Assembly: GCF_037042905.1 (NCBI RefSeq)
Contig: NC_087250.1
Span: forward strand, 12,402,001 to 12,466,000
DNA: 64,000 bases
Direction: 5' to 3'
Origin: Lytechinus pictus
Taxonomy: Eukaryota
Within the stretch, counting starts at the first letter, position 1, and each line of letters opens with the position of its first letter. Positions 31,056 through 59,796 of this stretch are shown here, one piece after another. The notes under the pieces were generated by a model. The model saw nothing but the letters and a program-made list of their open reading frames with translations. It ran no database searches and was not told the DNA's origin. Position numbers and translations under genes: made by a program.

Positions 31056-31132
31056 GACTGAGGACTTTCATAGTGCGATTCGAACCCTAGACGTGGAGTC
31101 CGAGAGCTCCGTTTCCCAGATGGCTTGTTATG
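31056..31132 (+). CDS. Candidate upstream RASEF exon
   Basis: Strong donor G|gtgagt. ATG GCT TGT TAT G (31120-31132) ends in phase 1, which fits the acceptor at 37101. The 5' boundary is uncertain. Confidence 0.4.
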
Positions 31133-31385: not shown

Positions 31386-32835
31386 TGACGTCACAATAAG
31401 ATCGGCTCCCTTATGTTGTTGTGCTCCGCGCGTGTGAAAGAGAGGGGCTTTATTATGTCTTTGCTTTTTGCTGTTTTTTTAATTATATGTTCGCTAAATA
31501 AATTAGTATTTGAAAGCAAGTCCAGTCGATATTGTGTAATTTCAGCAAGTGTATGGTCTTCCCCTTCTGGGAAGGACACACTGGAAAGAAACCTGTGTCT
31601 CACAGTGTGTTAACAGGTTTTTTTTTCTGTTTTGGACGCGGGTATCAAAAACACCGTTTTTCAAGCAAAAGGGTGGTTTTGAAAGACTGGTCAATGGTCA
31701 ATCGCAGCTCCAAATCAAAGCAATGGTATTGAAAAATAGTAATACCTTTATACCGTTTATACTGCATCTACTGGAAAAATACAGTTGTTCCTGCAGTCAA
31801 GTTTCCAGGTCTATCTTGTTGTCTTCCTATCTTGTTGTCTTCCTAGCTTGTTGTCTTCCTAGCTTGGATAAGTTCGAAAACTGAGTATGTGCTATTTGTG
31901 CAATGTTCTGACTGTTCTGACTGTTCTGACTGTTGCCAACTCAACACAAGACAGAAGAAGGAGCGGGGTCAAACGTATTTAGCTAGGGTATGTTTTTTCC
32001 AAAGCTTTTTTTAAGACTAGCCAAGCGTGTTTAGGGTATGTTTTTCCCCTAGGTTTTTCGCCGGGGTCATATTCTGGCGACAACTTGTTTAGGGGCCAAA
32101 ATGTATAATAAAGCCCGCGAAAAACTTGTTTAGGGGGTTATTTTGCACACAGAGAAAAAAACTCGTTTAGGGGATGTTTGGAAATAATTTGGTCACGCAT
32201 GTGTAGCGCAATACATTTGACTGCCCCCTCCCCCGGGTATACACCCCATATATTCGACAGCGAAATATCAGAAAAGCCGGGCTGGCCTATTTAGCTATGT
32301 GGGCTTGTTTATTCCAAACAAGTTCATACACCTCTTCCACATACCTATTCACACCCACGTCACTCTAGCATTGATAATACACGGATTATCCCATTGCCCC
32401 CAAACACGAGTTAAGGCGCTTTAGCGATCGATTTACAAGAAACTATTGATTAAAACTTTAAAAAAGAATTAAGATCGTGGCTCCACGCCTATTCACCTCA
32501 ATCGCCTTGTACCTCTTTTCATGTACTGCTCGGGGGTTCTATTCGAAAAATCTATCTGTGATTACTCAGGTATCAAAAACGAGAAGAAAACTGCACGCAA
32601 GTTGGGACATTGTATGAAGAAACGCACTCAAATCTTATTCAAAACCGCTCGACCCTGGGGTAAAACCACATGAAATCTTTGGTGTTTTTGTTCAAAATGC
32701 TGGCGGCTGTCTGCAACACATGATGCCTATGTTCTCGTAGAAACGCAGGGCTGTTTCAGTATATGGTTTGTTTTCCCGTTTGGAACTGTGCGTTTTGGAG
32801 GATCATAATAAATTTGGAATATATACCACTCGACG

Positions 32836-32866
32836 ATGCTGCGTCTTTTGATACCCTGTAACGACG
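32836..32866 (+). CDS. Second candidate first coding exon of RASEF
   Basis: ATG...MLRLLIPCND G|gtatgt ends in phase 1, also compatible with 37101. It is preceded by non-repetitive UTR-like sequence. Confidence 0.3.
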
Positions 32867-34258
32867 GTATGTAGTCCCGTATCCATGAAGCTCCTAAAGC
32901 TATATATGTACATGATGTATAACACCATGTACATGAAGCTCCTAAATCTACATGTATAATCCTTCTATTGATATGTTTTTTTATAATATCATATTAATGT
33001 AGTCGAAGTATAATGCCTTGAATGCATGCATCTTTAATTTACCTTGAAGGCCATAATTCATCTCATTTTTTCATATCGAACTTGGACGACAACGACGGCG
33101 AATGCCATTAATTCATTAATGTTAATGACGGTGAGGGTTGAAGGGTTAAGGCAGGGGGCGGCAGTGTTAGGGACGGGGGTTGCTGGGACAATTAGATCTG
33201 GAATTGAAGGAATGATTTTTGCCTCGATAGTTTTTTTTTTCAGTCAGTCCACTGCACTCTGACTGAAGTTGTTTTTGTTTTTGTTTTATTTTTTGTTTTA
33301 TTTTTACTTCCAATCTACTTTTTTTTTCTTAGTCACCTTAGGAGGAATCCTGTCTTTATTATAAATTCTGTCATATCTGGCCATATTGTAATCATATTAA
33401 TTTGGAGAGGAATGGATAGGGAAAAAAGAACAAGAAAACTTATTTTACCAAACACTTCACTTCACATAACCATCATTAATTGTCTAGATTAGGGAGGGGC
33501 GGTGTTACAATTGTGTTGATTTTGCAACAATAAAAAAAAAAAAGAAGCAAAATCAGTATTTTGATATTTGCAGAATTTCAACATATGTACTTTTCTATGC
33601 GTATAATGAGCTTATTTAGCTTGCTGATAATAATATTGCCCTTTCATCATGTTCATTTTCCATTAGCCATCAGTCAATAGTGACACCATCCAGCGATTTC
33701 TTTCAGTGTCATCATCGTCCATTTCATTGTCATCTCTCACGAAGCGATTCCCCACCCATGATCCCGATTCTTTCCATATTTAATCCATCAACCGTGATCG
33801 TCATCTATATCTTCTTCGTCATCCTTCCGTGGTCATTGATCCTCGATATCCTGATCAAAGCAAGCTTTGTCTTCCCCCTCATTATCGTCATCATCCATTT
33901 CATGAATACCATGTCAGGTACATCAGCGTTTGCTGTGTGATGTGTTGAATCCTTCCTAACGAGTCCCTTAAGGTCTAATAATGTGGATTTTGTCAAAACA
34001 TTAAAAGCTAACTAACATTTTTATTCTTTTTTTCTTCTTCTTAGTTGTGCATTTTTTTCTCTCTGAGGGAGTGAGTGTTTTATAATACCTTGGATGTAGG
34101 CATTTAAAGTTAATAACTTATTTGCCTCTCGACGGCTTCTCACGAAGAGTTCTGAACACTTTTAACTTTATATCAATTTGTTTTGTTTGTTTGATGTGTC
34201 CATTGCGATGATGATTTTAAAGTAACGTAAATGCTATATGATTGATAGACATACACTG

Positions 34259-34513
34259 CACTCTAAAAAAACATTGAGTAAAATGCTCCAGGAGGGTAAT
34301 TATTTGTCCAACCCACATTGGGCATTTCGTTTGGGAATTTTTATTTATCCAGTGTGATGAAAATTACGCCCATTCTAAAGTAATTGCTGCTTTTTATTTT
34401 AACCTTACTGGACAATATGCTTCCCACATTGGGTAAAATACTTCCCAAAATTGGTTGGACACATAATTACCCTCGTGCTGGTTAAGATTTTACCCAATAT
34501 TTTTTTTCCAGTG
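34259..34513. mobile_element. CACT-ended MITE
   Basis: CACTCTAAAAA...TTTTTCCAGTG; an opposite-orientation homologue lies at 59224-59475. Confidence 0.75.
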
Positions 34514-37100
34514 ATGAGGAGGAGGAGGATGATAAGAAGAAGAAGAAAAGTTTTTAGTGTTTGTATTAATATTTGTTCAGTGGAACCATTAATTTTCTTT
34601 CAAGATATCCTTCTTCTACCCTTTCTGTGAAAGCCATATTTATCACCAATAAGGCCAAGATAACGTGTATTTGATTTCAATGCTTTACAATTAGTAAAAC
34701 AAAAAAATTGAGGGTCCCTGACGTGACGTATGGGGTAAAATTTCAACACCCCCCCCCCCCAAAAAAAAAAAACGCTGCGAGAGAGCAAACCTTTTGACCC
34801 TTTCAATACATGTACAAAGTATCTAATTTCGTGATAGATTTGAACATAATATTCAGAAAATAATATCATATTTCATCTTTCTCCTTTCATTTTCTTTCCT
34901 TTTTTTCTTAGTTGTGATTTTTTTGGGGTCCACACCCTCAAGCCCCACCCCCTTCTGTACGCCGATGCTTGGTCTGACACGACTGTTGAGATAAAGTTTG
35001 CAAGATCAGATCTGTGATGTTGGCTATCATCATCATATTGATTTCCTTCAACATCGGTTCCTCTAGACAGAACAAAATGACATTTAGGTCCCACCCTTTT
35101 ACCATTCACTGACCTTCTTTACCTACAACTGCATTATGTTACACCAGTGAATGAGTTTGAGCATTTACCCAGTTATGTTAGGACCTTTTCACACGTGAAT
35201 CTTGAATGATGATTGCAGGCGTTCGTGATTCAAATCATGTTCTAGTCTGGTTCCACACATGCTAAAAATTCGTCATCAGCCTTATTTTCACTGGAATCAT
35301 TCAAATTAGATTTTTTTTTTCCGTGTGAAAGGGCGGTTAGATAGAAGGCCTTTCCATACGTGAATCTTGAATCATCATTGTAATGATGATTGTTATTGTA
35401 ATCGTGACTGTGATTAGCGTTCGTGATTCTAATCATGTTCTAGTTTGGTTTCACACGTATTGTACTCAAAATTCGCCATTAGCCTTAATTTTCATTGGAA
35501 TCATCATTCAAATTACGATTTTTTTTACCGTGTGAATGGGCGGTTAGCTAGAGTTGTGAACATGGTGAATAGCCTAGCATTTTTAATTCCATACTTCAAT
35601 TCGATTGCTTGAATGGAGTTATATTTGCCGAATATGAACATAATTATGCTATTCATCTTACTTATCTGTATAATCTTACACTGTTTAATATGTTGTTTTA
35701 CGCACACTATTGATTTATAGTCATTGTTTCACCCAAATGTCCATTTCCTATAGTGCCCCTATTAATTCAGGACTTTCATTTCAGTGGTTTTTATCAGTGA
35801 TAAATACGACTTGCAGTTTATAACTATATTTTTCCGTTCTGATAACTTTAGCATTTTAGACATTTTCGTGTTATCATATATGTAAAACTAGTTGTTTGTT
35901 CATGTTACTAATCATTGCCTAGATAATGACTAAGAATTTGATTTTATTTACATGTATGGTATTGATTATTTTTGTTAAAATCTTGATTCTGTTATCATCA
36001 GGTCATTGATGAAAAACTGTTTTTATGCTGATCTTTTGTAACTGACTAAATTATATTCTAATGAATAAATATATAAATAAACAAATAAATTAATAAATAA
36101 GTAAATAAGTAAATGAATAAATAAGTTAAAGGAATAAATAAATAAAAGAATGAATGAATAAATAAATAAATAAATGAATAAATAGATAGATGAATAAATA
36201 AATAAATATATACATATAAATAAATACATACATAAAGTAATATCTCAGTTTAACGAGTTGCTTACTAAAGGTGCTATCCATATGCAAAGGCAATTGGATT
36301 TAAGAGATCTACTATTCAATGTGTTAATGATATCATAAACACGTATTAGATTAATCTTATTTATGTTATGCGAAAGCCACACTGGTGAATGCGTCCCCCC
36401 CCCCCCCATACCATCCAAATTTATTACATCGTTTCTAATGTCACGCATTAGGTTGGACAATAGTGCAGGTAGGTGTTTCATAAAGCTGTTTGTAAGTTAC
36501 GAGCGACTTAACAAACGACTTATGATCGTTTCTTAGGTGCTGAATAATCATCAATGAAAATTCGGCGCATATTAATTTGAAACAAGAAAGGATCACCAGT
36601 CGCTCATAATTTACCAACAGCGTTATGAAACACCCACCGGTTCTTGTAAGTGACCGTAGCATAAACAAGTTAGATTGTTTTAATACGTGTTCATAGTAGC
36701 ATTAACACATTGACTAGCATATGTCTTAAAGCCAATTGAGCCAATTGTATTTTCGTAGGGAAAATCCCGTTTTAGTGAGCAACCGGTTAAAACCAGGATT
36801 ACACCAAAACCGAATTCTCCCGAATAAAATTCGGACCGATTCTAGCCGAATTAGTCCTAATTCGGATGGTTCCGGTGGATTCGAATGTTTCTGAATCCTT
36901 GCTGAATTTTCTCGCATTCACGGAAGGAGACCAGAATACTCCCATAACCACCCAAATACGTGTATTCGGATGGATTCGCAGCTTATTCGTTTCCGGTGTA
37001 ACCCGGCCTTCCTCGACATAAAGGTAGGTTCAGGGATATCCCTGGTAGGTTATAAGAATCCAGAATCCATTGTAAACTTGTTTAATCTACTTTCTTGTAG

Positions 37101-37294
37101 GTTCAAGGGCGTCATCGGATAACCTGGAAGCACCTACAGATATGGGCAGCGCCACCAACGGTGGTCCAAGTCCAGAGGCCATTCAGCAGTTGTTTGATGC
37201 ATGTGATTTGGATGGTAACGGGTATATCGAATGGGAAGAGCTGGAGATGGTCTGCGAGAATCTGGACAGAGATGAACTCGAGCATATATTTGAG
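37101..37294 (+). CDS. RASEF: RASEF alternative N-terminal module A, exon 1 (EF-hand 1)
   Basis: ttgtag acceptor, in-frame ATG at 37142, GAG|gtcagt donor. Reads IQQLFDACDLDGNGYIEWEELEMVC, a canonical EF loop. Confidence 0.85.
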
Positions 37295-37914
37295 GTCAGT
37301 GGTGATTCTGCAAATCGGAATATTGGAAGGTGGGGGGGGGGGGGGGGGGGCGGTGGCCTCCAATGTGACAAATAGTTTAAGGTACTGTGTGATCGAAGAA
37401 AGATTAGCTGTTACTTGTTTAGGTCATGCTGGTAAGTGGACACTAAACGAGTAATTATTTCTTTGATCTGAGAGTACCTTAAAGTATTTTTCACATTATC
37501 CCACCGTAAACGATGTCTCGAATATTCTGCAAAGACTAGCTGCCTTGTAAAGAGTGCCAGGTTTGAGTCAAATATACCTACTTCCTAGCCTTAACTAGCA
37601 GCCTTAATTGCACCACCCAAAGTCCTCAATTTCTCATAGCTGGCCAGGTTTCTAACCATGACATCCCGAGCAATATAGTCTTACAAAATATAAGCCCACT
37701 TGAAAGATTTTCACACCAAATAATAATCCTGTTACCAAGCTGAAAAAAGGTACCCTTCCTTTAAAAAAAACATTCACGTTTATCTATACAAATTAAATTA
37801 TTGGCTGCTTTATTTTCTGTATTATCTCAAAAGGAATATCGACTAGCTATTTATAACAAACAGTCAATAAGCGATCACCCGTTTTTTTCAATTCGTCTTA
37901 TGCAAATTCTCCCA

Positions 37915-38275
37915 ATTGCCAACTCGTCCAATATCGTTTGGTCTACCATCAGTTCGTCCACTATACACATGGTCTAATAGCCAATTCGTCATCTCACCAT
38001 TTCGTCTAATAACCAGTTGGTCCATTCGTCATTTAGTCCATTTTGGTCTAATTGGACTAAATGTTAATTGTGCAAAATGAACGAAAATGAAATTGGAATG
38101 ATATTAGAACAACTGGTTATGAGACGAAATGGTCATAGACGAAATGGTGATTAGACGAAGTGATGATCGGACCAAATTTATGATTGTTTGACGAAATGTT
38201 GGTGGATGGAATAGCATTAGACTAAATGAAAGTAGACCAAGTGGTGAGTGGACGAGTTGGCAGTAGACGAATTGT
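37915..38275. mobile_element. Foldback-like MITE with internal short repeats
   Basis: GCCAACTCGTCCA / TGGACGAGTTGGC ends; repeated TAGACGAAATGG motifs and their complements. Confidence 0.65.
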
Positions 38276-38365
38276 CAATTTCACAATCACCCACACCGAT
38301 TGGTCAGTTCGGCCCTCCTTCAAATGATTCTTCTTCTATGTTTTCCATTTTTTTTTAAATTCTAG

Positions 38366-38553
38366 GCTTTAGATGGAGATGGTGATGGGCGAATCAGTAT
38401 CACCGATTTCACTGAAGGTTTCCACAGTGTCAGTGAAGCTCTCCTGTCCGTCAGCCGTCGTAGGCGGCGCCAGCAATATCTACAGGATTATGACAGTGAA
38501 GAATTTGAGGTCTTTCTGCAACAATTGGGACCTGATTTTGACCTCGTGTCATG
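38366..38553 (+). CDS. RASEF: RASEF module A, exon 2 (EF-hand 2)
   Basis: ttctag acceptor, TG|gtgagt donor (phase 2). Reads ALDGDGDGRISITDFTEGF...FLQQLGPDFDLVS. Confidence 0.85.
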
Positions 38554-40248
38554 GTGAGTCTAATAATATCCATACGTGGTATTTGTGATGATGACAATTA
38601 AGTTTGATTCAGTAAGTAATAAATCTATTATTTTGAAATGTTATGAATAATGCACTGTTTAAATGTATTAAGACATGACTTATTTGACAGATTAAGAACA
38701 GAAGTAGCAATGCACATCTGTTATCAATGATCAATTAAAAAAATGGGCGGGATTAAATCTGCATACAATAGAAACTATACTTGAATATAATTTTTATATC
38801 ATCGTCTTTTAACAAGAAAACAAAACGAAGATGAATAGGAGAAAACTGCTTTTCAGGTGTATAAGTAGAGCAACTATCTACTTACTCGAGAATGTCCGTA
38901 TACTTTTACAAATCATAGTAATGAATCATTACATTGCCATAAAGAAGTAAAAACTGATGAAGACAAGAGGTGAAAAAGTAAAGATGAAAGGGAAGGCATA
39001 TACCTTACTTACACTGTTAGATCTGAGAATGATTGATGTTTATTTTGAACACCGTCATGCAACAAGGGCAATTGGGCCAAACGTAATACGAAAAAAAAAA
39101 TGCCCCCAAAATTGTCTGGTTGTGTCTATGTTTTCCATTGTCTAAGCTCGGATTGTCATATATTTGGATATAAATTATATGGTAAATAAAAGTGATAATT
39201 TTTAACCGTCATTGCTAGAATAATGAGGGCATTCCCCCTTCCGCCTCCAATTCCCCCCCCCCCCCATTATTTATGTCCTTTTATTACTCGGCTTTGAACA
39301 TAATAACCCGAATTTCGACAAATATAAATGAGTGGATGAGAGGATTAATTAACGCATGAAACAGGGCCCATAGATCTGCATTGTCACATCAACTAATAGT
39401 TAAATAAGATTTTATGGCTATGTCATATCTCTGCATAAGTATGAAAGCGAATTTAATTCATAATCGCAATGGCAGCAAGGCCATCTTCTGGTGACGTACA
39501 CTTGATAAATTATTTTTGAAAATTGTATTAGTGTATTATATTTTATATAATAATATACAAGTGTATTATATATATATATATTTAACTGTTAGAAGTGCCA
39601 TTTCTTCCACGATCTGGTAGCATACCAGTCGTCAGGTGTGAGGTGGGTTTTAAACTGGATACCGTCAAAATCCTCTACATCCAGCGATCGAGATTAATTC
39701 CGAATATTCATGGAGCTTAAATATAAATACATAAGAATAAAACATCTGAAAAAGCCAACAAAATAATAATAGATTAATAGTGTACGTTTTTAATTTCACT
39801 CGCTGCTATGGAGTTTCTTTTTTTTTCTCTCTCTCTCCATAATATAATTGTCAGCTTACACAGTTACACATAATTGTTTGATTGAATTCGATACTTGATC
39901 TCAGCATAAGTATAGTGTTACTATGTTATTTAATTGGATTTTTAACAAGTGGGTTGTGACAGGTGTTATACATAATAATGATATAATATGCAAGCGGGTT
40001 TTGCTTTTATTGACATTGAAAATTCAATCCGCTCTGTTTATCATCGTCCTTGCCAATTACACCGAGCAACGTAAAAGTAGAAATACAGTATTTTTTGTAA
40101 CCATTGTATTAAAAGAACGGCTATACCAAATTTAGGAACCTGGGATTCCTAGAAATGTGCAATAAATTAATATGAGCAGTAACCATACAATATTTTTCGC
40201 GCCTGAATGCTAGTACATTAAGGAATTTCCGGTGAAGAAAAAACACAT

Positions 40249-40674
40249 TAATCGCTAGAGGGTATTCATTTGTCTCGCAATCTACTATGGTCAACAAGGA
40301 AATTCGTGATCACTCTCGCAAAAAGTGTTCACTAGCTTACAAGTTCACGAGCTTTCGAGTGCCGCTGCAACTCTTTATCAAGTGACGAAAATTATCTGAT
40401 AACGTAGTCTATTTATACCAATCCCCAGGACCGTACGCACGAACGCGGGACTTGATAAAGAGTTGCAGTGGCACTCGAAAGCTCGTGAACTTGTAATCTA
40501 GTGAACACTTTTTGCGAGAGTGATCACGAATTTCCTAGAAAGCTAGTGAACACTTTTTGCAAGAGTGATCACGAATTTCCTAGAAAGCTAGTGAACACTT
40601 TTTGCGAGAGTGATCACGAATTTCCTTGTTGACCATAGTAGATTGCGAGACAAATGAATACCCTCTAGCGATTA
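40249..40674. mobile_element. Penelope-like element remnant (inverted pLTR pair)
   Basis: Near-perfect inverted arms of about 135 bp, each with a hammerhead-like core; 45-bp triplication in the right arm. Confidence 0.65.
40345..40385 (-). ncRNA. Minimal type I hammerhead ribozyme motif (U3-A8 variant)
   Basis: Minus strand reads UCAC-UUGAUAA-A-GAGU(ugcagcggc)ACUC-GAAA-GC-UC-GUGA: stem I UCAC/GUGA, stem II GAGU/ACUC, palindromic AGCU stem III. Confidence 0.6.
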
Positions 40675-41014
40675 TTTCATTCCGCAATAATGAACCTATT
40701 TAGTTTTAAAAAACACTTTGTTCCACACTGTGTCCAACAGCAAGTGTGTTCACAGTGTGGAACACAATGCGAAACTATATTCACACAGTTAAATTTGACC
40801 ATTTTAATAGTCAATCACGTTTTCTTTATCGTCTGAATGCTACTTCATGCATTTGATATACTCCTGCTGTAAAGTGTTCCACAGTGTGTTTCACAATATG
40901 TTAACAGTGTGGACCACAATGTGAAATCACCATTTTAGAAGTGTGAATTACATTTGCACTGTGAAAACACTGAACACCCATACTGTAAAGATGTCTAGAG
41001 TACGAAATAGTAGT

Positions 41015-41305
41015 AATCACTATCATCATCATCCTCATCGTCATCATCAGCATTCTCGCCATCATCATAATCATCGTCATTATCAGCATCCTCACCATCA
41101 TCATAATCACCATCGTCATCATCATGATGAAGATGATAATGATCATCATCATCAAAATCATCATCACCATCACAATCATCATCATCATCATCACAATCAT
41201 CATCACAACCACCACCACCACCAACACCACCACCACCACCATCATCATCCTCAACATCATCCGGAGCATCACTACTTCGTCATCCTTGTTATCGTCATCA
41301 TTATA
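41015..41305. repeat. (CAT/CAC)n microsatellite
   Basis: Direct inspection. Confidence 0.95.
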
Positions 41306-42177
41306 CTCACAATATGATAACCATTCCCTTACTAGTATACCCTGTACCTATACTGACACTGCTTTTTTTCTTTTGAGACACTCTGTACATGAACACCTGT
41401 TGCCTAACAATTTTTGTACACGGAATACATATACCGTGTTTCTGTTTGCATTTGAGTATACGTTTATGCTACAGTTACACCAATGCAACCGATTCCAAAC
41501 CGACCGATGGTATGTCATTGGTAATAACGTAATAGCTTTAATCGGCCTAGAGTGTGTCAGAAAGGTGTAACCGTAACATAAACGTTTGCCATGCATAATG
41601 TGGCTGTGTGTAGTTTGAGTAATACAACAAATATCACGTCATGCCCAGCTACACTTACGACGGATAATAAAGGATTGTTGTCAGTTTATAGCATCTAAAA
41701 CTTCACACCTCAAACAATACAAAAAACTGAAATATTATATACCTTCTATATTGTATCTTATCAATAGCAGGTCTCGGCAGATTCTAAAGTTACCTTTTAA
41801 AGAAATATTTGACTTTAAATGTTAAAGAATGGGCGAAATGACCAATACTGTTTCAGCTCGTCCTAAGATTATTTCTTTTTAGATAGTTATCAAAAATGGG
41901 CTATGGTTTTTTGAAAGAGAAACTATAATGCTATTGAGAGGAATATATTAGTTCGCTACTAGACGATATTGAGTAGTGAATTATAATGTGTTATCATCGA
42001 AGTGGGCCTATATTACAAGACTACACTGCTAAGAATGTTGCATTATGGGTAAGGCATCTGGCCAGGTTTGAGAGGTTGAGGATTTGGTGCCATTTAAACC
42101 TGCTAGTTCGTATCTGCTTCAAAACTTAGAATATACACACGCGCCTAGCCAATAGTCATTCTAGGCCTATTGTAGAT

Positions 42178-42445
42178 GTATTGTCGCCCAGTGGGTAGGT
42201 CTCCGGACCTTGCACCACAAGGTCCGCGGTTCAAATCCCATCGCTGCACTTGCGTTCTTTGGACAGGCATTTATCTACATTTGCCACTCTCCACCCAGGT
42301 GTAGTAAATAGGTACCTGGTAGGAAATGATTCCTTGAATGCTTGAGCGCCCGGTGAGAATGTCAGTGAAGCCTTGTTAAAACATATACGCAACGCTTAGA
42401 AACATTGTTTTGAGAGATAAACATTAAATTATCATTATTTATCAT
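42178..42445 (+). mobile_element. tRNA-derived SINE
   Basis: GCCCAGTGG A-box, GGTTCAAATCC B-box, CCACCCAGGTG...GGTACCTGGTAGGAA core. Confidence 0.75.
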
Positions 42446-43741
42446 AATAGTCATATATTTTTACATTATTCACATTTAAAAATGAATGCGGGTCTCCATG
42501 GAGATATAAACTAATATCATTTACGTCACCAGTCGTGCGTTAATATACATGTATGCCCTGCTGTTTTCAAGAAATGTCAATACCCTGAGGTTTAACAGTG
42601 TAAACTCTGAGTTAAGTGTATATACCAATTGACATTTAGACGGTTGGAGGGGGGGGGGGTGTCACAAGTCGTTAGAAGGGAGGCACCGTGCTTGTATGCA
42701 TGTACATTGAAAAGATCCTTAAACAAGACGAAACAACCATCTGAGAACACCCAAACGAATTTTATATTTTCCCCTCCATAAATAATATCTCAAATATTTC
42801 ATCTCCATGATAACCAATTTTCGCGTTTCTAGGTCGAAAACCCCCCACTTTTCTCAGATTTTTGCATTTTTGATACAAATTTAAATGTTCATATAAAGTC
42901 AACGGGTAGACAAAAACAACCCCTTTTCATTTTTTTTCGCTTCAAAATGAGAGTATACAATACCGACATAGATTTTCATCAGAGCTGCATCGCTGCGAGA
43001 AGTGAACATTTCCTTTAATCTTACTTAAGTGTGAAACACGGATGTCGGTTAACAATGCAACAGGTCCTCTTTTTTTAATTACCAGTGTGTCGTATTACTG
43101 TTCCTCGTCGTCATACGAAGTGTGTCCGTTCTTAATCACAACATCTCGCAACAGGTGTGCTCCCTGCCAGTGTTTGATTGAATGCAGAGCGGCATGTATC
43201 AGCTTGTGGAACTAGCATATTAATTTGGAGTTGAAACAAGTTGAAATTGCAGCCAATCGCAGAAGGAAAAGAAGGAAAAGAAGGATATTGCCCTGAATTT
43301 GGATTTTTATTTTGGAAATAGACCCATTCATTGGAAATGAATCCCAGAAGTGGATCCAGTGGCTCTAGTAGTTTGTTTAATTTATTTGAGATGAAGTCTG
43401 TTTCATTTGGATAATTGCTACGCCATTCCAGTTTTGCTGGTGACGTAGACCAAGTGTTGAGCTGATGTTGCAGTTGGAACAGTCTGCACAGGATCCGAGC
43501 ATAATCGTTTACTACTCTATTAAAAATAGTGGAAAGAAAGGGGAAACATTTGTTTTGTCTTCAGCATTCCTTAGATTAACCACAATTTCATCTTAAAGCT
43601 CATCTGAATCTATATTTAAAAAGAAAACCCAACAACGCCAACAACGAAACGTGGCAATCCTGAAAATGGGGTCATATGGATAAGTAAATATTTTTGGATG
43701 TAGGCGATTGGTATTCTGGGAAACACGATTACAAAGGAATA

Positions 43742-44175
43742 ATGGACGAATCACGTATCCGACACCTCTTCGAAGTCTGCGATCTCAACGCGAGCGGATA
43801 CATCGAGTACGACGACCTCCGCGATCTCTGCCTCGGCAGCGACCTGGAGATCACCGACGCCGAGCTCGGCAGCGTGTTCGACGAGCTCGACACCGATGGC
43901 GACGGGAAGATAAGCGTTGAGGAGTTCGAGCAGGGCTTCCAAGGGGTGGAGGAGCTGCTCCGACGGAAGGTCAAGGCCAACAGTAGCGGTGGTGGAGGAG
44001 TGTCGACAGGGGGGCAAGATGGAGTTGATGGGGGTAGCGATGGGTCCAAGAGGGGGCAGAAGAAGGGGGAGAACAATAATACCGTGACTGGTAGAGATGG
44101 GAAGGCTAACCAAGCCTACACGGCGTGGCAAAGCCTGGTGACCAGCCTCGGACCGGGCGTTACTCTTCTTCCAAG
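43742..44175 (+). CDS. RASEF: RASEF N-terminal module B (two EF-hands in one exon)
   Basis: Reads MDESRIRHLFEVCDLNASGYIEYDD...LDTDGDGKISVEEFEQGF...AWQSLVTSLG. GC-rich codon usage; AG|gtgcgt donor in phase 2; resembles vertebrate RASEF exon 1. Confidence 0.9.
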
Positions 44176-47100
44176 GTGCGTACTATATACGGCAGAATTC
44201 AATTCCAAAAAAATCAATTCAATTCAATTTATTTTCCACATATTGAGTAAAAAAACATACAATATCAGTACAATCAAATGCATTCATAGATAATAACAAT
44301 ACAAGTATAAAGAGTTACAATATATTACATTAAAAATTGAATTGCATTGAATTGAACTTGCCAGCCCAAGGGGGGGGGGGGGAGCGGTATAACCCTTTAA
44401 ACCCCCGTACATGTAGATCTGCCACTGATCGTACGTTTTATTTTACGTCATTACAATAAGACGACGTCATTACATTTACATGTCAAAATCATAAGAAGAG
44501 TTACAATTTCCATGAATATGAACCCAAGTTATGATTTAAAACAAGGCAAAGTAAGACGTTCCATATTTCAATATCAACATGATAATTCGGGGAACATTTA
44601 TGACGTCTTATTCGAAAATCAGGTCGCAAGGCAATCGTAAGGTTTGCGGTGGTCCTTATAGAAACGAGTTATGAATTTTTGAGTTCATTATCCCTTACTA
44701 CATTTTTAAACGAATGCGCAAAAAAAATTAAATGATGCTTTAACTTTTAAAACATATATTTTTTTATGGAAGAATAAGCAGAATACAACATATAGTGGGT
44801 ATGAAAGTTATAAATAATGTTATTGATTTATCTATTTATTTATTTACTCGTTTATTTATTTATCCATTTATTTATTTCGTTTTATTTATACAGGGTGCCC
44901 CCGTCAGTATTCAGGCTACTGTTTTCCAAGGGGCCCTGTAAACAGATATTTTCAACATAACAAGCAAACAAATAAACATAACAATATGAATGAACAATAC
45001 AAGCAGAATAATCGTAACTTTATATGGTATTTATGTTTATGTATTTAGTTTTCTGAGTTTATCGGGTTTAATTGTATGTTATTCTATTATGATAAGGGCT
45101 ATATATTTGAGTAAAATGTAAAGATATAGGTCGATGTAAATCTAAAAGCTGATGAAAGAGGAGGAGCGAATATGGAAAACCTTGTCAGTAGGGCCAAAAT
45201 TTTCTTGACAAAGAGTACATAATAATAATGATGATAATCCGGGAGCACTTAAACGTAATTTATCATTTCTGACGACCCCTTCTTTTTCCCTCAAAAAGGG
45301 AAAAGGGTAAGAAAAAGTCATCGAAATTTTGTTGGTGTCGGGGAGGATAGGGCACCTTGCCACCTCTGCCCACCATCTCAATCAAGCTTGTGATTATGAC
45401 ATGTATGAGGGGTGAATGGAATCGCTATAAATATACGACTTTGGGATATATCCTACCTACCTCCACGGCTCACTAAATGAAAATTTACGATTTTAAATAT
45501 TAAGACTGTAAAAAGTTAAAGTACAAGTGAGAACTAACCATTATGTAGCTTGAACCAAAAGAAAAATAATAAAATCATGAATAAAATAGCATTAAGGATT
45601 ATTTCTTTGCTTTTACGAGCCGGTTTATTTTATAACTTTGCTACCGATTTCGGCTTAGATTATACCGTCAAGAAATGTATTTATTTATTTATTTTGTTTT
45701 ATTCATTTTATACTGCAGGGTAGGCCTGTTCAGTTCTTAAAACTGCTTTACAAAGGCGCCATGCAGTTTAAAATACATGTCAAGATAACTATGAACAACA
45801 ACAACAAACAACATCAAAAATACAAAATACAAAATATCTAACATCAGAAACTATTAACACCAAAATATAGAGTGGGAAGTGACAATTTAAACATACATAG
45901 CATTGTAAATCAAAGAAGTAAATAATTAAACAAATATACCAACCACAAACATGACAAATTTAGCAATATGCCTGCGTAATACCATTTACAAAGTAATTTA
46001 TGCACATTTACACTCAGCAAGTAGTACGCGGTGTACCATGAAATTAGGGGCGGCGCAAGTATGTTCTGATTAAGGGGGAGGGGGTGAAAGAATAGCTAAA
46101 AGTGACGCAAATGTTTCTCATTGAAACACAAAAGTGTATTATAAATTCATACGGCCCGGTCGCCTGGATATTCTTCCTGAATATAAATATTTGTTATTTT
46201 CTTTTAATTGTTTACTGTTACTCTCATTTTCTTTCGTATTATTATTATATATTACTGTTATTATTATTATCATCATCATCATCGTTATTATCATTTATAG
46301 TTAAGACTTGTTTATACAAGGTAGCCTCATCAGTGACGCACACTGTCCTCCCAGAGGCCCCTGTTACATGTAAGCACACACAGATACATGTAAAAAAATA
46401 ACCCAAAACAAAGGAGAAAAAAAACTCCAAAGGTACAAAAAAGAATAAAGTTTGCCGAGTTGTTTCGTAACTCTAGGGTTAAGGACTTAGGGTTCTACGA
46501 TAGGTTGAAATGAAAGATTTCATTTTTCAAACACCCTTTTAATATGTTTTGATCAAGTAAAAACAAAATGGGCGGCCGTGCCAATGCCTCCCCCCCCCCC
46601 TCCTGTTGCACCACCAATGCGTGGGATATTAAATAATATCCAACCCTGTCACGGCCGTTGACGCCAGATGGAGCTTTCTCATGCATAATACATACATAAA
46701 CGTGATATTCCGAGTATTTACTGTACACACAATACACGATATACCTTTCTGATGAAGTGTGTGCGAATATACATATATATATATTTATATTTAATCCTGT
46801 ATAGCATGCATAAGAATTATCAGTATACACCGAGATATGAAATGTCATTGTATCGTCATACCATGAGTTAAAGAAGGAGTTATTTTAAAACAACTAGCAA
46901 TGCATTCCCAAACATGCAGGCTGTCACAAAATTTAAAATCTTAGCTGTAGCAATGGGTTCATGTGTAAACTTCGGGATTGTTCATTTTTATTCGAATAAA
47001 TAAATGAATAAATAAGAAAATGATAGAATTATACTTTTAGTATCCCCTTCCACATCTTTACGGAGCAGTATATTCAGTGATGGAGATACCCCCGCGGATT

Positions 47101-48374
47101 GATATTATAAACGTATTACGTATTCTATACCAAAGCAATATTTATTCTATATACGTATGTAGATTGTTTTCCCTGTTAGTCGTTATCTTTTTGTGAACTT
47201 AACATGCAATCTACTTTTCAACAGAGTTATCATAATACACTACTCTTTGAAGAAGGTTTTAGAATAGTTAAATCCCACCCCATAACTAATAACTTTCCAT
47301 TAAAAAAGAGAAATAAATATCAAACTAGCATAACACGGACAAATTTATAACATTGGACATAAAACAAAAAAAAGTATTCGCTTTTGTTTAGCCCCAATGT
47401 GCACAATATTCCAAATCTTGGAGGCAATGTAATGCTATATCAACATGAGTGTATTTCTTTTCATAAAACACGAAAGATTTCTTTTTGTAATTCAAAACCT
47501 GTCACTATTCAGTAAACCTCTAAGATCTCAATTACTGTATACATGAAGGTAGCATCTTTATAATCGAATAAAAAAATGCGTTTTATTAAATAGTGGATCT
47601 TCAATGATCATAAACTACGAAATATATCATGAATGAGTGAAAACATGGATTTATCATTTTACCTATTACTCGCGATGTGCATGTCATCATAATTTTGTTC
47701 AAATTAAGCCAAACATAGAAATGTCATAAATTGTTTATCTTACATTACATTTTGATGGAATGATGCATTAGATAATGTTTACCAAATAGATCACGCCGGC
47801 AGCACCAGCTGCAAAATTAGCAGAATGACAAATAGATCGGACTTTGAACATATAGCACGGTTTTCATATTTGGGTTACTCGTCTGACGGTGTCCAAATTT
47901 GCCGTCTATTATCTCATGACGTCACAAATCTAATAGTTCTGATTTCGTTCAATATTTCCCCATTTAGTATTTGAAAGTCCGTTTTCTTTTTAAAGGCTTG
48001 TTGTTCTCATCTGAAAATGGAGTACAATATTTATCCCTATCTTTAATCAACTGAGGGCCATTACTTGTACTTCTACCTTCATTAAATCGTTAAAAACGTA
48101 CTTGTTCTCATGTTGAATTATGTGGGATATGAAACGTGCATTACAATAATAATTTGTTAATTTTCCATTTAATATATATATATTTTTGTTTACAGTTACT
48201 GGTATTACACTTAATTATTTGTATGTAAAGCACGGAGATTCTGTTGAATATTATGCGCTATATAAGCATCTATTGTAATAATTATAATTATTTCAAATTT
48301 TAGTGAGCTAAGTTTATGTGATTTTCATTGATGGTGCATTGAGCACCCTTGATGTGGTGGATATGTTGTTGGGC

Positions 48375-48427
48375 ATTATTAATATTATTATTATCATTAT
48401 TATTATCATTATTATTATTATTGTTAT

Positions 48428-48473
<46 letters not shown>

Positions 48474-48576
48474 GGTGGTATTAGTATTATTAGTATTATT
48501 ACCATTATAAGCATTATCCATATCCGTTTTAATTTACAAGTATTTAGATATAAATTAATTAATGTAGTATTAGTAA

Positions 48577-48635
<59 letters not shown>

Positions 48636-48774
48636 TTTATTACCATTATAAGCATTATCCATATCCGTTTTAATTTACAAGTATTTATATATAAATTAAT
48701 TAATGTAGTATTAGTAGTAGTAGTAGTAGTAGTATAAGTATTAGAAGTAGTAGTAGTAATAGTAGTAGTAGTAA

Positions 48775-48829
<55 letters not shown>

Positions 48830-48895
48830 ATTAGTATTATTACCTTATCATTATCCCTATCTGTTTTAATCTACAAGTATTTAGATATAAATTTA
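48375..48895. repeat. (TAG/TAT)n microsatellite with a repeated unique spacer
   Basis: ACCATTATAAGCATTATCCATATCCGTTTTAATTTACAAG occurs at 48501 and 48642, with a diverged copy near 48842. Confidence 0.9.
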
Positions 48896-49144
48896 TGACT
48901 GTCTAATCTGCATTGATGTTTGAAAAAGATTTACAACTGAATGCCAATTCTTCCATTCCATAAATGGTTGACACGTGCAGGAAATATCCAATCAATATAA
49001 ACAAAAGAAATCTTGGAAATTGTATTGTTCTCGTGATGCAAATGGTATGCGCAAGCATTCCACACGCTTATTTATTCTCAATGTTTGTTTGCCGAAATGA
49101 GTCGAGTTAGTTTTGTTTAAAAATCCTGACATATACGATTTCTA

Positions 49145-50124
49145 CAGTGCGTATCAAAAAAAAGTTTACACTTTGAAAAAGCACTGGGAATTAAAGAATA
49201 TACAACATGTGGGTAATTTTTTCACATATAATATTGGGTTTGGGTCTCATCTATCCAATGAAAGTAAAAGTTTGTATAGAATGTTATACTTGAGTGAGCA
49301 CTGTCCATTTTTGTAAAGCTCGCAGAAATCTGTTTGCGCAGAAATGCTCGTTTTCACGCTGTGTCAATGGGAAAGGGCAAAATCAAACTTACCCTGCGAA
49401 ACATTTCTCATACATTTCCCTTGCACTTTTAGTCAATTTAAATAAAATGGATACATTCAAGCATTTTGTAACAGTTTTGCCACCCAAATTGAAATTTTAA
49501 CACTTAGTAAGCACAATGTTTACACTTTATGTGCCAGCTGGATCTGAGGACATAACTGGATCTGAACAAAAGTTTACATCAGACATCTCCAGCATTTTCA
49601 CTAAGTTTCTATTATTCAAAGTGGGTTCATTTTTCATTTAATACTTGTTTCTCCACACTTTTTCCAATCTTGACAATGATTAACAAAATGAAAATCATGC
49701 CTAAGCCATTCCATGTAAATCACAGCTCGATCAGTGTAAAGCAAATATCGTCAAGATGGCCTCGGTGTGTTGGGGAGTGGGGTGGGGCGCAATGCACTCT
49801 TCGAAGTGATTTGGGCAAGGAAACAAGTTAAAAAAGATAAAAGATATCTTCAAATCAAATTTACTAGCTAAATTCCATGTGTTCTTCATGATTAAGGTCT
49901 ACTCTTATTTCCACAACTATTTCAAAGTTCTGCGCAAATCATTTTTCACTAACTTTTCAAAAGTAAGTGGTGCTCACTCAAGCGGAAATATTTTTCGACA
50001 GTTATATCGTCATTTGCTTAAATGGATCTGTACCAATGTTAAAATGTGGAAAATTCCTCAGTATATTACAAATGTATAATTTTACAGGATTTTATCTAAG
50101 TGTAAACTTTTTTGATGCGCACTG
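49145..50124. mobile_element. Tc1/mariner-type non-autonomous element
   Basis: TA|CAGTGCGTATCAAAAAAAAGTTTACACTT...AAGTGTAAACTTTTTTGATGCGCACTG|TA. Confidence 0.85.
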
Positions 50125-51024
50125 TATAGTAGTAGGTATAAGAACAGTTGCTAAATCTACTACTAAGTATATATTAATGATACCAAATTCCCATGTCTTC
50201 AATTTTCTAACACAATTAAGTTCCACGACAGCTTTACCATTTACAGCTTTTATCATTATTTAAAAAAATTCATTGATTCTTTTAGCGAAGTCTCAAAAAC
50301 ATACGCCTACATTATGCACATAAAGTAAATCATTATCATTTTTGTTTACATGGCAAGAGCAAACGAAACAGTATGAGCAGTGTAACATGCTGGTCAGGGG
50401 TGAAGAAAACATAACAAATAGCTGTTGCTCAAAAGCATATCCCTCATATAGCACTGAGCATCATTATATTTATTTAAAAACAGACATACACAACCGATTC
50501 AATCAGATTTAACATTGATTAATTATTGTCAACTTCGTTTTCATTTTCTAACCGAACTTTCTTCTTATTATTTTCTTAACAAACCGTGCGTCGTATAATC
50601 TTATTTGGGATTTTAACCATATATAATAAATTCGGTAATTTTAGCAATTTTGTCGAATTTTAACTCTTACCTTGGTCACATTTGCTCTACGGTGGCCGTA
50701 CGGCGAGTCGAAAACAGCCGTTTTATTAATTTTAATTAAAACCACCTATATGAAGTTGGGCAAAAAAAAATGTGACCAAGGTATTACTGCTGTACCATTT
50801 TTCTACAGGCTTTAACTTGTTTAAGATGATAAGACTGTACACGTACCCGAGTTTGTATATATAATTACCTTACTTTGCATGTCAACATAATCCAGCATTA
50901 GTGTTTGTATAAGAAAGGTCAAAATGGTTGAAATACACATTTGATGAGATGCGCCACGGGTATATTTGATTAATATCATGTGAAACATATGGATGAAAAC
51001 GGCCATGAGAGGCCTAAGAGAGCA

Positions 51025-51170
51025 GGGGCCCATTGCAGAAAGAGTTGCAATCAATCGCAACTCTAAAAATCATGCGCAACTTGATTTTCAACCAATCAAC
51101 AGCGTGCATTTGGGACTTGCGATTGATTTTTTGGTTTGCGTTTAAACGCAACTCTTTCTGCAACGGGCAG
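51025..51170. mobile_element. MITE
   Basis: GCCCATTGCAGAAAGAGTTGC / GCAACTCTTTCTGCAACGGGC inverted ends. Confidence 0.7.
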
Positions 51171-51781
51171 GGAGAGATCGAGAGTGGAGAGACAGAGAGA
51201 TAGATGGAGATACTGTAGAGACAGAAAAAAAATGGACAGGTTTTCGTTGAGCCTAATGTGGGTGTAAAAGAGTGCGGTGAGGTTTATGGCATCCATTTTG
51301 TAGTTCATTTAGAATGCTAAAGTGAATTATGCATGATGAACTAAAACACGCGCACAAAAAAAAAACACATGATAAAAAAAGGAATTTACATGCCCTTTAT
51401 GAAATTATTTGAAGATCATGAACAATTATTTTGTATTTGAAAACAAAAGGTTTTGCATGAATTGAAAGTGGAAATAAGTGATTGTAATAATATACGACAT
51501 TTAGAAATTTCAGTATTTCCTCCGATATTGGGCCTTATAGTGTTACGTAACCACGTTAAAGACTGATATATATCCATATATATATATACATGTATATATG
51601 AATAGAAATAAATATATATAATTTCACAAATTCCATTTTATGTAACTCTACCAGATCTCGATCCATAATGATATATTGACAATCTTGGTTTTACCGGCTT
51701 TTTAAGGCTTTCTGGTCTAAATATCAGTGTTTTACTGCAACTTCTTTCATTTATCATATTTTTTTGTTTTCTTATTTTCAG

Positions 51782-51931
51782 CCAAGATCAAATTTGTGAG
51801 TTGTATCAGCAGCTCCATTCGTCGGAGGTGCCTCAAACACTTCGCCAGTATGAATCCGTTATCTATGACGTCATAAAGGATCTTAGGCAATACCAGTCAG
51901 AAGTCGATAGGTTAGAGAAATCATTAAAGAG
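51782..51931 (+). CDS. RASEF: RASEF exon
   Basis: tttcag acceptor, AG|gtaagc donor. Reads QDQICELYQQLHSSEVPQTLRQYESVIYDVIKDLRQYQSEVDRLEKSLKR, like RASEF EQVSTLYQ...YEHVI. Confidence 0.9.
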
Positions 51932-52342
51932 GTAAGCTGTTTATAATTCCTTCTTTTTTCAGTATTATTTTTTAATATTTTTTTTATTATTATCATCAGT
52001 AGCAGTAGTAGTAACACTTCTAGTATAATCATGTGCTGTAAACTTAGATTCATATGAATTTCATTGCATTTTTATTTTTTTATGATCTCATGTCCCGGGA
52101 AGAACCCAATAGATTGAATTTACATTTTCTTATAATTATTATCATTGTTATTTGTGTTATGATTTTTATAATATTTATCATTACTACTTGAATTATTATC
52201 ATTATTATTATTATCATTATTACTATTATCACAATTATTATTTCTATTATCATTATTATAATCATTATTTCCAAAATTATTATACCATTATCATGAAAAA
52301 CTCATGATGATCATCATTATCAAATGCAATCATTTATTGCAG

Positions 52343-52433
52343 GACAAATGAAAGCAATACCGAGCACCTACAGCAGCTGGAGTATGAGATGGAAGTACAG
52401 ATGACAAGAACAGAACAGAGAGTTAGGAAGGAG
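52343..52433 (+). CDS. RASEF: RASEF exon (coiled coil)
   Basis: ttgcag acceptor, GAG|gtaaga donor. Reads HLQQLEYEMEVQMTRTEQRVRKE. Confidence 0.9.
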
Positions 52434-52459
52434 GTAAGAGCATAGTACTGAATGAAGAT

Positions 52460-54210
<1,751 letters not shown>

Positions 54211-55313
54211 TACACATTGCTAGTGCAGTTTGATGTATAATTTATATTAAATGTGATATATTTATATACACTATGTTTATGTTTTTCAACTCGGTCTGCA
54301 ATCATCATTGCTTATTCAAAAGATGAAGTATTTTAAAATGTTTTTATATTAATGTGAACCGTATGTTTGTAAATTTACCAATACCACCGAGTCCCTATGT
54401 CTATAGAGGAAAATAATATTTCAATAATAATTGAATACTGGTAAAAGACTACGACTGCGAATCAGATAATTGATTTATGGATGCGGTGGCAGTTGAACAA
54501 TAGGAGGATGAATGGCTCAACGCTCAACAAAAAGAAATCAATATACCTATATGCACCGCCTTTCAAAAAGACTGTATTCCCATACCATCTTAACGATCAA
54601 TACGGTAACTCCTTCGTACACAATGTGCTTGAGATGTGCTCGGATACCAGTCTAAGAAAAATAAGATCAATAATCGGGATGGTTTCTTAAGATGTTTATT
54701 GCGTCCTTGCTCTGCCTACCTCCAAACCTACTTGTACCATATTCTGGACCACAGAAGACTTAAGCTTGAATCACTGTAGATTGTGCGATGTGATCGTTTA
54801 TAAATCTGGCGTCTATATGGAACCTACCAAATGATTGGTCCGGGAAGAAAGCATCCTAAACACGCTTCATGTTTATCTTAATCAGTTTTCGAGTCTGGAA
54901 GTTTGGGCACTTGAATGATTTTAAGGAATAGACCATTCCCCCAATAGACGAGTCCTTGGTGCCTGGAAGTGAATGCAGTGACATTGGCTTGTTCCTAGCA
55001 GTCGTTAGCGAAACTTCTGTCCAGGACCTGACCTCCCACGTGATTACCTTCAAAAGGGAAATCTGAAATGGATGGTTCCATGTCTCCGGGGAAAGTTATT
55101 TCGGATCTTGATTCATTCTACATCATGTGACAGAAAGATTTTCAATGGGGATTGTCATTTATCTTGCTTTTCGATGTAATCAGTTTAAGATGTTATAGGT
55201 CTCTTTGATTGTTGATCTGGATAATATTCAGAATCATCTGCAAGGGCTTTAAAGGTGGAACTTATTACAAACGATATTTATTTGGAGGTTAAGGAAAAAG
55301 TCACACAAGCACG

Positions 55314-56609: not shown

Positions 56610-56955
56610 GTAAAACGTGAAAGCAGCAGTATTTCCTGCGCGATGGCCGTGTCATAACAGTAACTAATGACATTTTACCATTGGGTATGAAGCACGTATA
56701 GCATCGTTATTTCATGGAGCTCCATGTTTACCTATTTCCTTCGCTCTTGGGGCATAGGAGTTATTGTTGATGTTTATGTATCAACCCTCATTGAACTACC
56801 CATGTCCTCCAAAGTAGACTCGTTACACATAGTGTCAGTAAACGAAATAGCATATTCCACGAGCTTACAAGAATTCGTACGATCGAGAGAAATAGGTCAT
56901 ATGTATCAGTGTGCATGACTTTGAAGTAAAATTTTGATGATCTTTCTTTTGACAG

Positions 56956-57051
56956 GAAAGGGAAAGAATAGAATCTGAGAAAGCCGAGATCCAGAGGCAG
57001 CTTGAGGCAGAAATTCGAGAATTGAAAAGTAATCTCAATCAAATACACAAT
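56956..57051 (+). CDS. RASEF: RASEF exon (coiled coil)
   Basis: gacag acceptor, AAT|gtaagt donor. Reads ERERIESEKAEIQRQLEAEIRELKSNLNQIHN. Confidence 0.88.
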
Positions 57052-57570
57052 GTAAGTGTGGATACTTTACAGATAATCATCTTTTATGACTTAATTCGTT
57101 TGGAAAAATGCATTTTCGGTTATTTGGTAAGAATTTTTTCAGTGTTTCAGTAATTATATGAGCACATGTTACCTCCAAACTACCACCCCGCCCATCTGCT
57201 TTGAAAATACATCCCAAGGTGTGGATTTTTGTTCACCTTTTTTCACAGAGGGAGATAGATAGATGAATAGAGAGAAGGGGGGATACATGAACCATAATAA
57301 TTGATTTTTTGAAATGATGGTTCTTATGCACAAATATCGAATTAAACTTTGTTTTGATAATATCGTATCAATCGATCTTATATCAGTCTGCAGACAGAGA
57401 TTGATTTGAGCAAAACCGGTGTGTTGGGCCAAGATTAGCACCACTTGGCACGCTTGCCCAGTCAACCTCAAGTAGGCTTGAAATTCATACTTTGTTACGA
57501 TAAGTGATTCAACAAACCGAGCTTTTGTACGTGCAATCTAATGATGTTTCTCCATTGTTCTTCTTTAAAG

Positions 57571-59754: not shown

Positions 59755-59796
<42 letters not shown>

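Follow-up and report, generated by a model that had tools for sequence, protein, structure and literature searches.

Vertebrate RASEF/Rab45 and CRACR2A/Rab46 are built in one order, with an EF-hand pair, a coiled coil, a Rab domain and a C-terminal CCxx motif. To our knowledge, no proteins other than these EF-hand large Rabs combine a calcium sensor, a coiled coil that activates dynein and a Rab within a single polypeptide. Mammalian CRACR2a and Rab45 are described as activating adaptors of dynein-dynactin with motility that is Ca2+-dependent for CRACR2a and not for Rab45 (PMC6504896), and a second study reports that the CRACR2a EF pair binds the LIC1 helix with calcium only (PMC7655957). Large-Rab isoforms include Rab45-S and Rab44-S without the EF-hand domain and CRACR2A-S without the Rab domain; the available portion of the 2021 review that describes them mentions no exchange of EF heads, nowhere uses the word ‘invertebrate’ and covers C. 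elegans as the sole such animal (PMC8303950). In this work, we analyzed a window of 64,000 nucleotides from the sea urchin Lytechinus pictus (contig NC_087250.1, positions 12,402,001 to 12,466,000) and found a gene with the same order of domains, very likely a single member of the RASEF/Rab45-CRACR2A large Rab GTPase family equipped with two alternative N-terminal EF-hand heads. While the vertebrate proteins sampled have one head type each, termed B here, the urchin gene adds a second type, termed A. We found no published account of a RASEF head exchange among titles and abstract openings, with few subscription journals covered.

The identity of the gene was established from module B, the exon of the second head, and from the exons downstream of it. 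Module B is 100% identical to the starts of L. pictus RefSeq RASEF isoforms X2-X4, which are titled ‘ras and EF-hand domain-containing protein homolog’ (762-778 amino acids, C-terminal CC-x-x), and a protein search with it returned nine matches, seven of them echinoid RASEF proteins and two unrelated EF-hand proteins. Precomputed Pfam annotation of the L. pictus RASEF isoforms lists EF-hand, coiled-coil and Ras (PF00071) families, and the Rab domain and prenylation motif (PF00071, CC-x-x) are present in P0005-P0007, proteins that are 100% identical over module B. The RefSeq common exons align to the window in order from 51783 to 62918 (tblastn), with the Rab exons lying beyond the window end. 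A HMMER search of 1.84 billion representatives, using the A-form protein P0016 without most of the Rab domain as query, gave 1295 matches at E<=0.001. The 48 proteins at E<=1e-30 align through the common-exon region, showing that the coiled-coil region is homologous to the family, and RASEF entries of fish, hagfish, amphioxus and molluscs are among them by name. Thirty of the HMMER matches could be named, and a crinoid query contributed 16 more named proteins; word-based protein searches with single exons reached echinoids only. An open reading frame scan of the window detected no further Pfam-matching gene.

A preliminary description of this DNA had proposed one RASEF gene with two paralogous, mutually exclusive EF-hand heads, and translation of the window reproduced its exon coordinates, frames and phases for both modules (Table 1). 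That each module encodes an EF-hand pair followed by a related tail is also borne out. Pfam EF-hand_7, an EF-hand pair, matches module B (E 6.9e-16) and EF-hand_6 matches module A exon 1 (E 6e-7), which also contains an internal ATG at 37142, while module A exon 2 alone scores under the Pfam cut-offs because the exon carries just half a hand and one loop. Between the two modules, 68 residues align at 44% identity (tblastn E 1.4e-14; BLASTP 2e-8 and 2e-7 for the two A exons). EF-hand likeness as such is not specific: when PDB sequences were searched with A and B, calmodulins came out above human RASEF, and the human RASEF EF domain (2pmy) was found for B only (E 2.3e-10), so these calmodulin-dominated searches cannot tell the head types apart. 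The evidence that specifically points to relatedness of A and B is their common tail, their common splice phase and acceptor, and their orthologues.

Both modules end in phase 2 before the acceptor at 51782, a junction documented by RNA for A and by RefSeq models for B. Head A joined to the common exon reads ...LVS-C-QDQICELY and head B reads ...LLP-S-QDQICELY, and both peptides occur exactly in RefSeq proteins. A transcript with both heads in frame is excluded by the exon structure. The AGs at 43702-3 and 43735-6, upstream of the ATG of module B, are phase-1 acceptors, as the preliminary description had pointed out, and an in-frame TAA at 43685-7 additionally shuts the frame upstream of that ATG; because the donor of A is phase 2, the upstream AGs are phase 1 and the TAA closes the frame, an in-frame A-B fusion is impossible. 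No two-headed protein was present among the echinoderm and hemichordate protein models examined.

Four RNA runs under the L. pictus species label, two with stranded raw reads (X15 and X16) and two with contigs (X1 and X2), were mapped to positions 32700-52600. Leader L2 is spliced to module A exon 1 (32866>37101, GT..AG, sense) in 21 reads of X15 and 12 of X16, the two A exons are joined (37294>38366) in 21 and 17 reads plus a contig, with a depth of 32-45 on the first of them, and the first two common exons (51931>52343) in 16 and 26 reads plus contigs. The joint that connects head A to the RASEF body, 38553>51782, is present in all four runs examined, with 16 reads (14 starts) in X15, 18 reads (16 starts) in X16 and one contig each in X1 and X2. 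Since the first common exon has a depth of 20-22, most of the RASEF transcript in these samples is of the A form. Because RNA joins module A to 51782, module A belongs to RASEF, and the L. pictus annotation, which files head A as a separate gene, splits one gene and is corrected here. Almost all differences between reads or contigs and the window exons (11 of 12) are synonymous, which fits purifying selection on module A.

Protein models of sister species, which the preliminary description had missed together with leader L3 and the terminal exon at 43155-43215, contain the same junctions. A search with module A exon 2 found five proteins, with P0014 as the only one from L. pictus. Head A joined to C-QDQICELY and a full RASEF body occurs in L. 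variegatus P0015 and P0016 (830 and 667 amino acids) and S. purpuratus P0017 and P0018 (784 and 809 amino acids), and head B continues into S-QDQICELY in L. pictus P0005-P0009 and S. purpuratus P0011; a holothurian-like organism is represented by a Logan contig of 4.7 kb that yields an uninterrupted B-type protein of 716 amino acids (P0212). A-form and B-form isoforms of S. purpuratus and L. variegatus are thus already in RefSeq, and the pairing is not new to databases. The new point is the age of the A/B pair.

Isoform pairs with different heads and identical downstream sequence were found in S. purpuratus (A in isoform X4, B in X3; 647 identical downstream residues), in the hemichordate Saccoglossus kowalevskii (A in X1, B in X2; 635 residues) and in the crinoid Antedon mediterranea (A in X5, B in X3; 599 residues). 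Further A-type heads come from Apostichopus, Anneissia, Ptychodera and Glandiceps, and further B-type heads from Asterias amurensis and the holothurian-like contig P0212. Judged by these sequences, echinoids, a holothurian, crinoids and hemichordates appear to keep both head types on one gene. As sea lilies and acorn worms have the same pair, the choice of head is more than half a billion years old.

Table 1. Exons of the RASEF gene in the window, numbered from the first nucleotide of the window; a slash marks the exon end at a donor
Feature	Position	Strand	Borders and phase	Encoded peptide and remarks
Leader L1, coding part	31120..31132	+	ATG GCT TGT TAT G/gt; phase-1 donor, to module A exon 1	MACYG
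Leader L2, coding part	32836..32866	+	phase-1 donor	MLRLLIPCNDG; leader used in the RNA runs examined
Leader L3	33758..33917	+	phase-1 donor	53 codons + 1 base, MIPILSIFNPS...HFMNTMS-G
Module A exon 1	37101..37294	+	AG 37099-37100, GT 37295-6; phase-1 acceptor, phase-0 donor	extension and EF-hand 1 (loop DLDGNGYIEWEE)
Module A exon 2	38366..38553	+	ends TG/gt, phase 2	EF-hand 2 (loop DGDGDGRISITD), RRRRR, tail EEFEVFLQQLGPDFDLVS
Alternative terminal coding exon	43155..43215	+	AG 43153-4, TAG 43213-5	W-CAPCQCLIECRAACISLWN then stop; follows module A in P0014
Module B, one exon	43742..44175	+	own ATG; ends AG/gt, phase 2	EF-hand 1 DLNASGYIEYDD, EF-hand 2 DTDGDGKISVEE, Gly/Ser-rich linker, tail AWQSLVTSLGPGVTLLP
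First common exon	51782..51931	+	base 1 completes Cys (after A) or Ser (after B)	QDQICELYQQLHSSEVPQ...; start of coiled coil
Second common exon	52343..52433	+		R-TNESNTEHLQQLEYEMEVQMTRTEQRVRKE; tblastn and 51931>52343 RNA joint
Later common exons	56953-57054, 57571-57768, 59123-59173, 60078-60158, 60709-60801, 61410-61538 (approximate)	+		coiled coil and linker; RefSeq isoforms, tblastn
Optional cassette exon	~62853-62918 (approximate)	+		ALIQQSGARKLLEEFL; in isoform P0007, missing from P0005 and P0006

The two head types differ in a set of characters that can be followed in other animals. Heads of type A have an Arg/Lys run after EF-hand 2, the tail F-x-x-F...L...F..L-S/N-C and a Cys junction, and heads of type B have the tail A-W-x-x-F/L...G...P-S and their own Met. 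This Met lies 5-13 residues before EF-hand 1 in the B-type proteins of every species, and the A-type proteins have variable extensions. The EF loops are spaced by 32 residues in all eight ambulacrarian A heads and in Lingula, octopus, Biomphalaria, a rotifer and two nematodes, by 34 residues in four ambulacrarian B heads, six chordates, Limulus and two cnidarians, and by 36 residues in two echinoid B heads, counts that omit Candidula, amphioxus, lamprey and P0041, in which loops were mis- or half-detected. The A head of L. pictus scores 101-125 bits against other ambulacrarian A heads and 65 bits against its own B head, and the B head scores 83-90 bits against the B heads of crinoid, sea star and hemichordate. 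By characters and profile scores, the proteins of Lingula, octopus, two snails, a rotifer, a flatworm and two nematodes are A-like, and those of amphioxus, tunicate, lamprey, hagfish, fish and mammals are B-like; none of the 11 named chordate records examined, a non-exhaustive set, has an A-type head. Limulus is B-like by loop spacing and tail with a small profile-score margin, and the two cnidarians combine the spacing of 34 with near-equal scores on the A and B profiles.

A first tree was built from the head alone (112 columns, 33 rows), with nine ambulacrarian A heads grouping with spiralians and six B heads with chordates (branch support 85/89). The A/B split appears in 100% of 200 bootstrap trees, and the order within the A group follows the species tree. 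For the second tree, Limulus and four unnamed arthropod-like rows were added, and the rotifer and two nematodes were removed for their long branches; the A/B split has support of 96/80 and the arthropod-like group stands on the B side, while the position of the tunicate is to be ignored, its row being mis-cut (425 residues). Both trees omit the unnamed P0041, P0045, P0074 and P0113 and a duplicate hagfish-like row. Two nematode heads, P0032 and P0053, have the A-type spacing of 32 and Cys junction, yet they fall on the B side of the first tree with a very long branch (2.27), and may be of either type. In approximately unbiased (AU) tests, a clade of Saccoglossus A and B was rejected (p 0.027).

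Three leader exons precede head A, and all of them combine an ATG with a phase-1 donor matching the phase-1 acceptor of module A. The preliminary description had named the donors at 31132 and 32866; their phase was upheld by the sequence, and the second is joined to module A in the RNA reads given above. Leader L1 is outside the read-mapped stretch, and its peptide opens the L. pictus RefSeq model P0014 as MACYG-SRASS. S. purpuratus isoform X4 (P0017) opens with an L2-like leader. By tblastn, L3 matches the N-terminal end of L. variegatus P0015 at 83% identity and that of S. purpuratus P0018 at 44%. Little RNA was seen for L3, with a sense depth of 0.8-1.4 in its bin and no L3 joint among the 15 of 59 joints listed. 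The peptide of L3 is strongly hydrophobic in two stretches. If translated, L3 would give a prenylated Rab an N-terminal segment that resembles a membrane anchor.

The choice of head is most likely made by alternative promoters, a conclusion to which the logic of the exons leads: module B brings its own ATG and lacks an in-frame acceptor, as a first coding exon would, and module A is fed by leaders. The short distance from Met to EF-hand 1 in B-type proteins and the variable extensions of A-type proteins are as such an arrangement predicts. Head A would be transcribed from upstream promoters through one of the three short leaders, and head B would serve as first coding exon within the intron of 13.2 kb that separates head A from the common exon. 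If started upstream, a transcript would splice 38553 to 51782 and remove B as part of the intron, and one starting just upstream of B would splice 44175 to 51782, such that promoter use sets the head and both heads in frame together remain excluded. Of the two mechanisms put forward in the preliminary description, alternative promoters fit this arrangement. Mutually exclusive splicing from a phase-1 leader does not, as the phase-1 leaders feed A only and B has its own ATG without a compatible acceptor.

Both heads were modeled with AlphaFold2 (AF2), and the EF cores have a predicted local distance difference test score (pLDDT) of ~90 in each; the predicted tail helix has a pLDDT of 73-81 in B and ~55 in A. 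Docking of this helix in the EF-hand cleft, as a ligand carried by the protein itself, was considered and is not part of our reading. In Foldseek searches, 6psd (CRACR2a with LIC1 peptide) ranked second for both heads and 2pmy was among the top matches. The root-mean-square deviation of both heads from 6psd is 1.3-1.5 over 63-65 columns, which is not specific evidence because calmodulins match equally well. The canonical loop pattern (oxygen ligands at positions 1, 3 and 5, acidic position 12) is present in all four L. pictus loops, which look calcium-competent. At position 12, A-EF1 and B-EF2 have Glu, whereas A-EF2 and B-EF1 have Asp, and the Asp is kept in all eight ambulacrarian A-EF2 loops and all six ambulacrarian B-EF1 loops. 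Besides CRACR2a and Rab45, the dynein-dynactin activating adaptors of EF-hand type include FIP3 and ninein; in this class the EF-hand pair engages the LIC1 helix and motility is activated by the coiled coil. The most likely role of the head swap, by analogy with the mammalian adaptors, whose EF-hand pairs bind the helix of the dynein light intermediate chain with or without a need for calcium, would be to give one coiled-coil/Rab body two calcium or dynein-engagement settings across cells or stages.

A number of points weigh against this account of one gene with two old, exchangeable heads. The evidence for use of B in L. pictus comes entirely from RefSeq gene models: among the two junctions that the preliminary description had singled out for an RNA check, 38553>51782 was seen, and 44175>51782 is not among the 15 of 59 joints listed, with the B exon nearly silent (depths of 0.79 and 0.04) and no cluster of starts for it in the mapped runs. 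A functional difference between A and B is not evident from sequence because all four loops look calcium-competent, and the argument for promoter choice is one of exon logic alone. RefSeq files P0014 as a separate ‘EFCAB4B-like’ gene of 151 amino acids with head A only, ending at 43215. With regard to age, usually one isoform was sampled per species outside Ambulacraria, which limits calls of A-only or B-only. The head alignments are short (111-112 columns), and branches are long in amphioxus, tunicate, nematodes and the arthropod-like group (1.34). In AU tests, all ambulacrarian heads as one clade gave a borderline result and were not rejected (p 0.071), nor were all deuterostome heads in the set without arthropods (p 0.48), and the groups tested in the enlarged set were named after a tree had been seen.

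The tree-based points bear on a different history, in which the duplication took place in the ambulacrarian or deuterostome stem. B would then resemble arthropod and cnidarian heads through a retained ancestral state, and what A has in common with spiralian and nematode heads, a linker shorter by two residues and a Cys junction, would reflect convergence or slow evolution of one copy. We regard this as a serious possibility, although we lean against it. Without arthropods, holding the deuterostome heads together costs only 0.8 log-likelihood units, and the failure to reject formally an ambulacrarian A+B clade, the short alignment and the long arthropod-like branch all suit such a history. However, once Limulus and the four arthropod-like rows are added, the clade of all deuterostome heads is rejected (p 0.0098), as is the clade of all protostome heads, spiralian and arthropod-like (p 0.015), and the spacing of 32 versus 34 residues splits nematodes and spiralians from arthropods just as it splits A from B. 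Because the alignment is short, some branches are long and the later groups were chosen post hoc, we grade the date in two steps: a pre-ambulacrarian origin of the A/B pair is well supported, and a pre-bilaterian origin is likely but open. A fuller scenario can be offered tentatively, and in its entirety we consider it rather unlikely: the RASEF gene of the bilaterian ancestor would have had both heads, with nematodes and spiralians keeping A, arthropods and chordates (including all vertebrate paralogues, RASEF and CRACR2A/B) keeping B, and ambulacrarians using both, and the heads would differ in their Ca2+ requirement for the dynein light intermediate chain. If true, the head swap would be the invertebrate counterpart of the calcium difference between CRACR2a and Rab45, which vertebrates achieve with separate genes.

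The RefSeq model P0014 raises the question of whether module A is instead a separate EF-hand-only gene that ends at 43215, with A>51782 as a read-through or chimeric by-product. In its favor, P0014 exists as the sole L. pictus protein of the five matches to module A exon 2, and its last exon aligns to 43156-43212 at 100% identity (tblastn). Set against this are the reads of X15 and X16 across A>51782 relative to the depth of the common exon, the contigs of two more runs, and full-length A-form models in S. purpuratus, L. variegatus, Apostichopus, Antedon, Saccoglossus, Ptychodera and Glandiceps. The exon at 43155-43215 itself has a depth of ~0 in bin 42660-43323, and no joint to it is among the 15 of 59 joints listed. 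A separate gene is therefore very improbable. The preliminary description had noted that splicing of A to a 3′ end of its own would tell against its proposal; such a form exists as the P0014 model, without visible RNA support, and leaves the A>51782 form in place. The weakest explanation, a recent intragenic duplication within sea urchins, might be suggested by heads 5 kb apart in one intron-exon context and an LGP tail on both in echinoids, but it is refuted by the AU test, which rejects a clade of echinoid A and B (p 0.0008, log-likelihood difference 42.3), by the hemichordate and crinoid A/B pairs, whose downstream sequence is identical, and by L. pictus A and B each being nearer to counterparts in other phyla than to each other. 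Of the intragenic duplication that the preliminary description had envisaged, the paralogy of the heads thus stands; as a local event in sea urchins it does not, the pair being at least as old as Ambulacraria and probably older.

Some further features of the locus were observed. A second optional stretch of the RefSeq isoforms, VTSAVNNLMEYFENE, sits past the window end. A stop-free frame of 454 codons at 55293-56657 (+), within the intron between 52433 and 56953, has no Pfam match at E<=0.01. Intronic stretches at 36020-36683, 38012-38675, 40004-40667 and 48636-51291 have summed contig depths in the thousands and reads on both strands, with many loose ends and odd joints, and probably represent dispersed repeats or transposon fragments whose transcripts come from other genomic sites. 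Runs of G are found at 37322-37350, immediately 3′ of the exon 1 donor in module A, and at 44366-44381, ~190 bases 3′ of the donor of module B. Outside the window, P0010, a B-form record of 280 amino acids resembling S. purpuratus, contains two tandem copies of the 50-residue peptide encoded by the first common exon, reflecting an artefact of assembly or modeling, or else an exon duplicated in the source.

In comparison with its chordate relatives, head B of the urchin has a Met just before EF-hand 1 and a loop spacing of 34-36, as they do, and shares the tail A-W-x-x-F/L...LG...P-S/R before the conserved Q-[DE]-Q exon; the models of both urchin heads superpose on the CRACR2a EF pair (6psd) and the human RASEF EF domain (2pmy). 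The ‘vertebrate-type’ and ‘protostome-type’ heads may accordingly be two old paralogues rather than diverged orthologues, and this would alter how heads are aligned and compared across animals. The published large-Rab isoforms and the urchin gene have in common that alternative transcripts generate N-terminal diversity in one gene family, and P0014, with 151 amino acids, is formally like a short large-Rab form without the Rab domain. Whereas the published isoforms add or drop a domain, the urchin gene exchanges one EF-hand pair for a paralogous pair. The same junction peptides are present in RefSeq (Gnomon) models of S. purpuratus, L. variegatus, Saccoglossus kowalevskii and Antedon mediterranea, where they were produced automatically and passed unremarked. 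A natural exchange of paralogous EF heads on an identical body amounts to a ready-made experiment on differences in calcium gating within the family, and sea urchin embryos are tractable for isoform-specific knock-down.

Alternative first coding exons joined to common exons are familiar from UGT1A and the clustered protocadherins. Urchin RASEF differs from these in having two units only, in that unit A itself consists of two exons with three leaders, in that the units are EF-hand pairs, and in that its choice of promoter is one we infer. It would be like them in its logic, with a variable first exon that brings its own start and donor, a single downstream acceptor, and a promoter that would fix the N-terminal domain.

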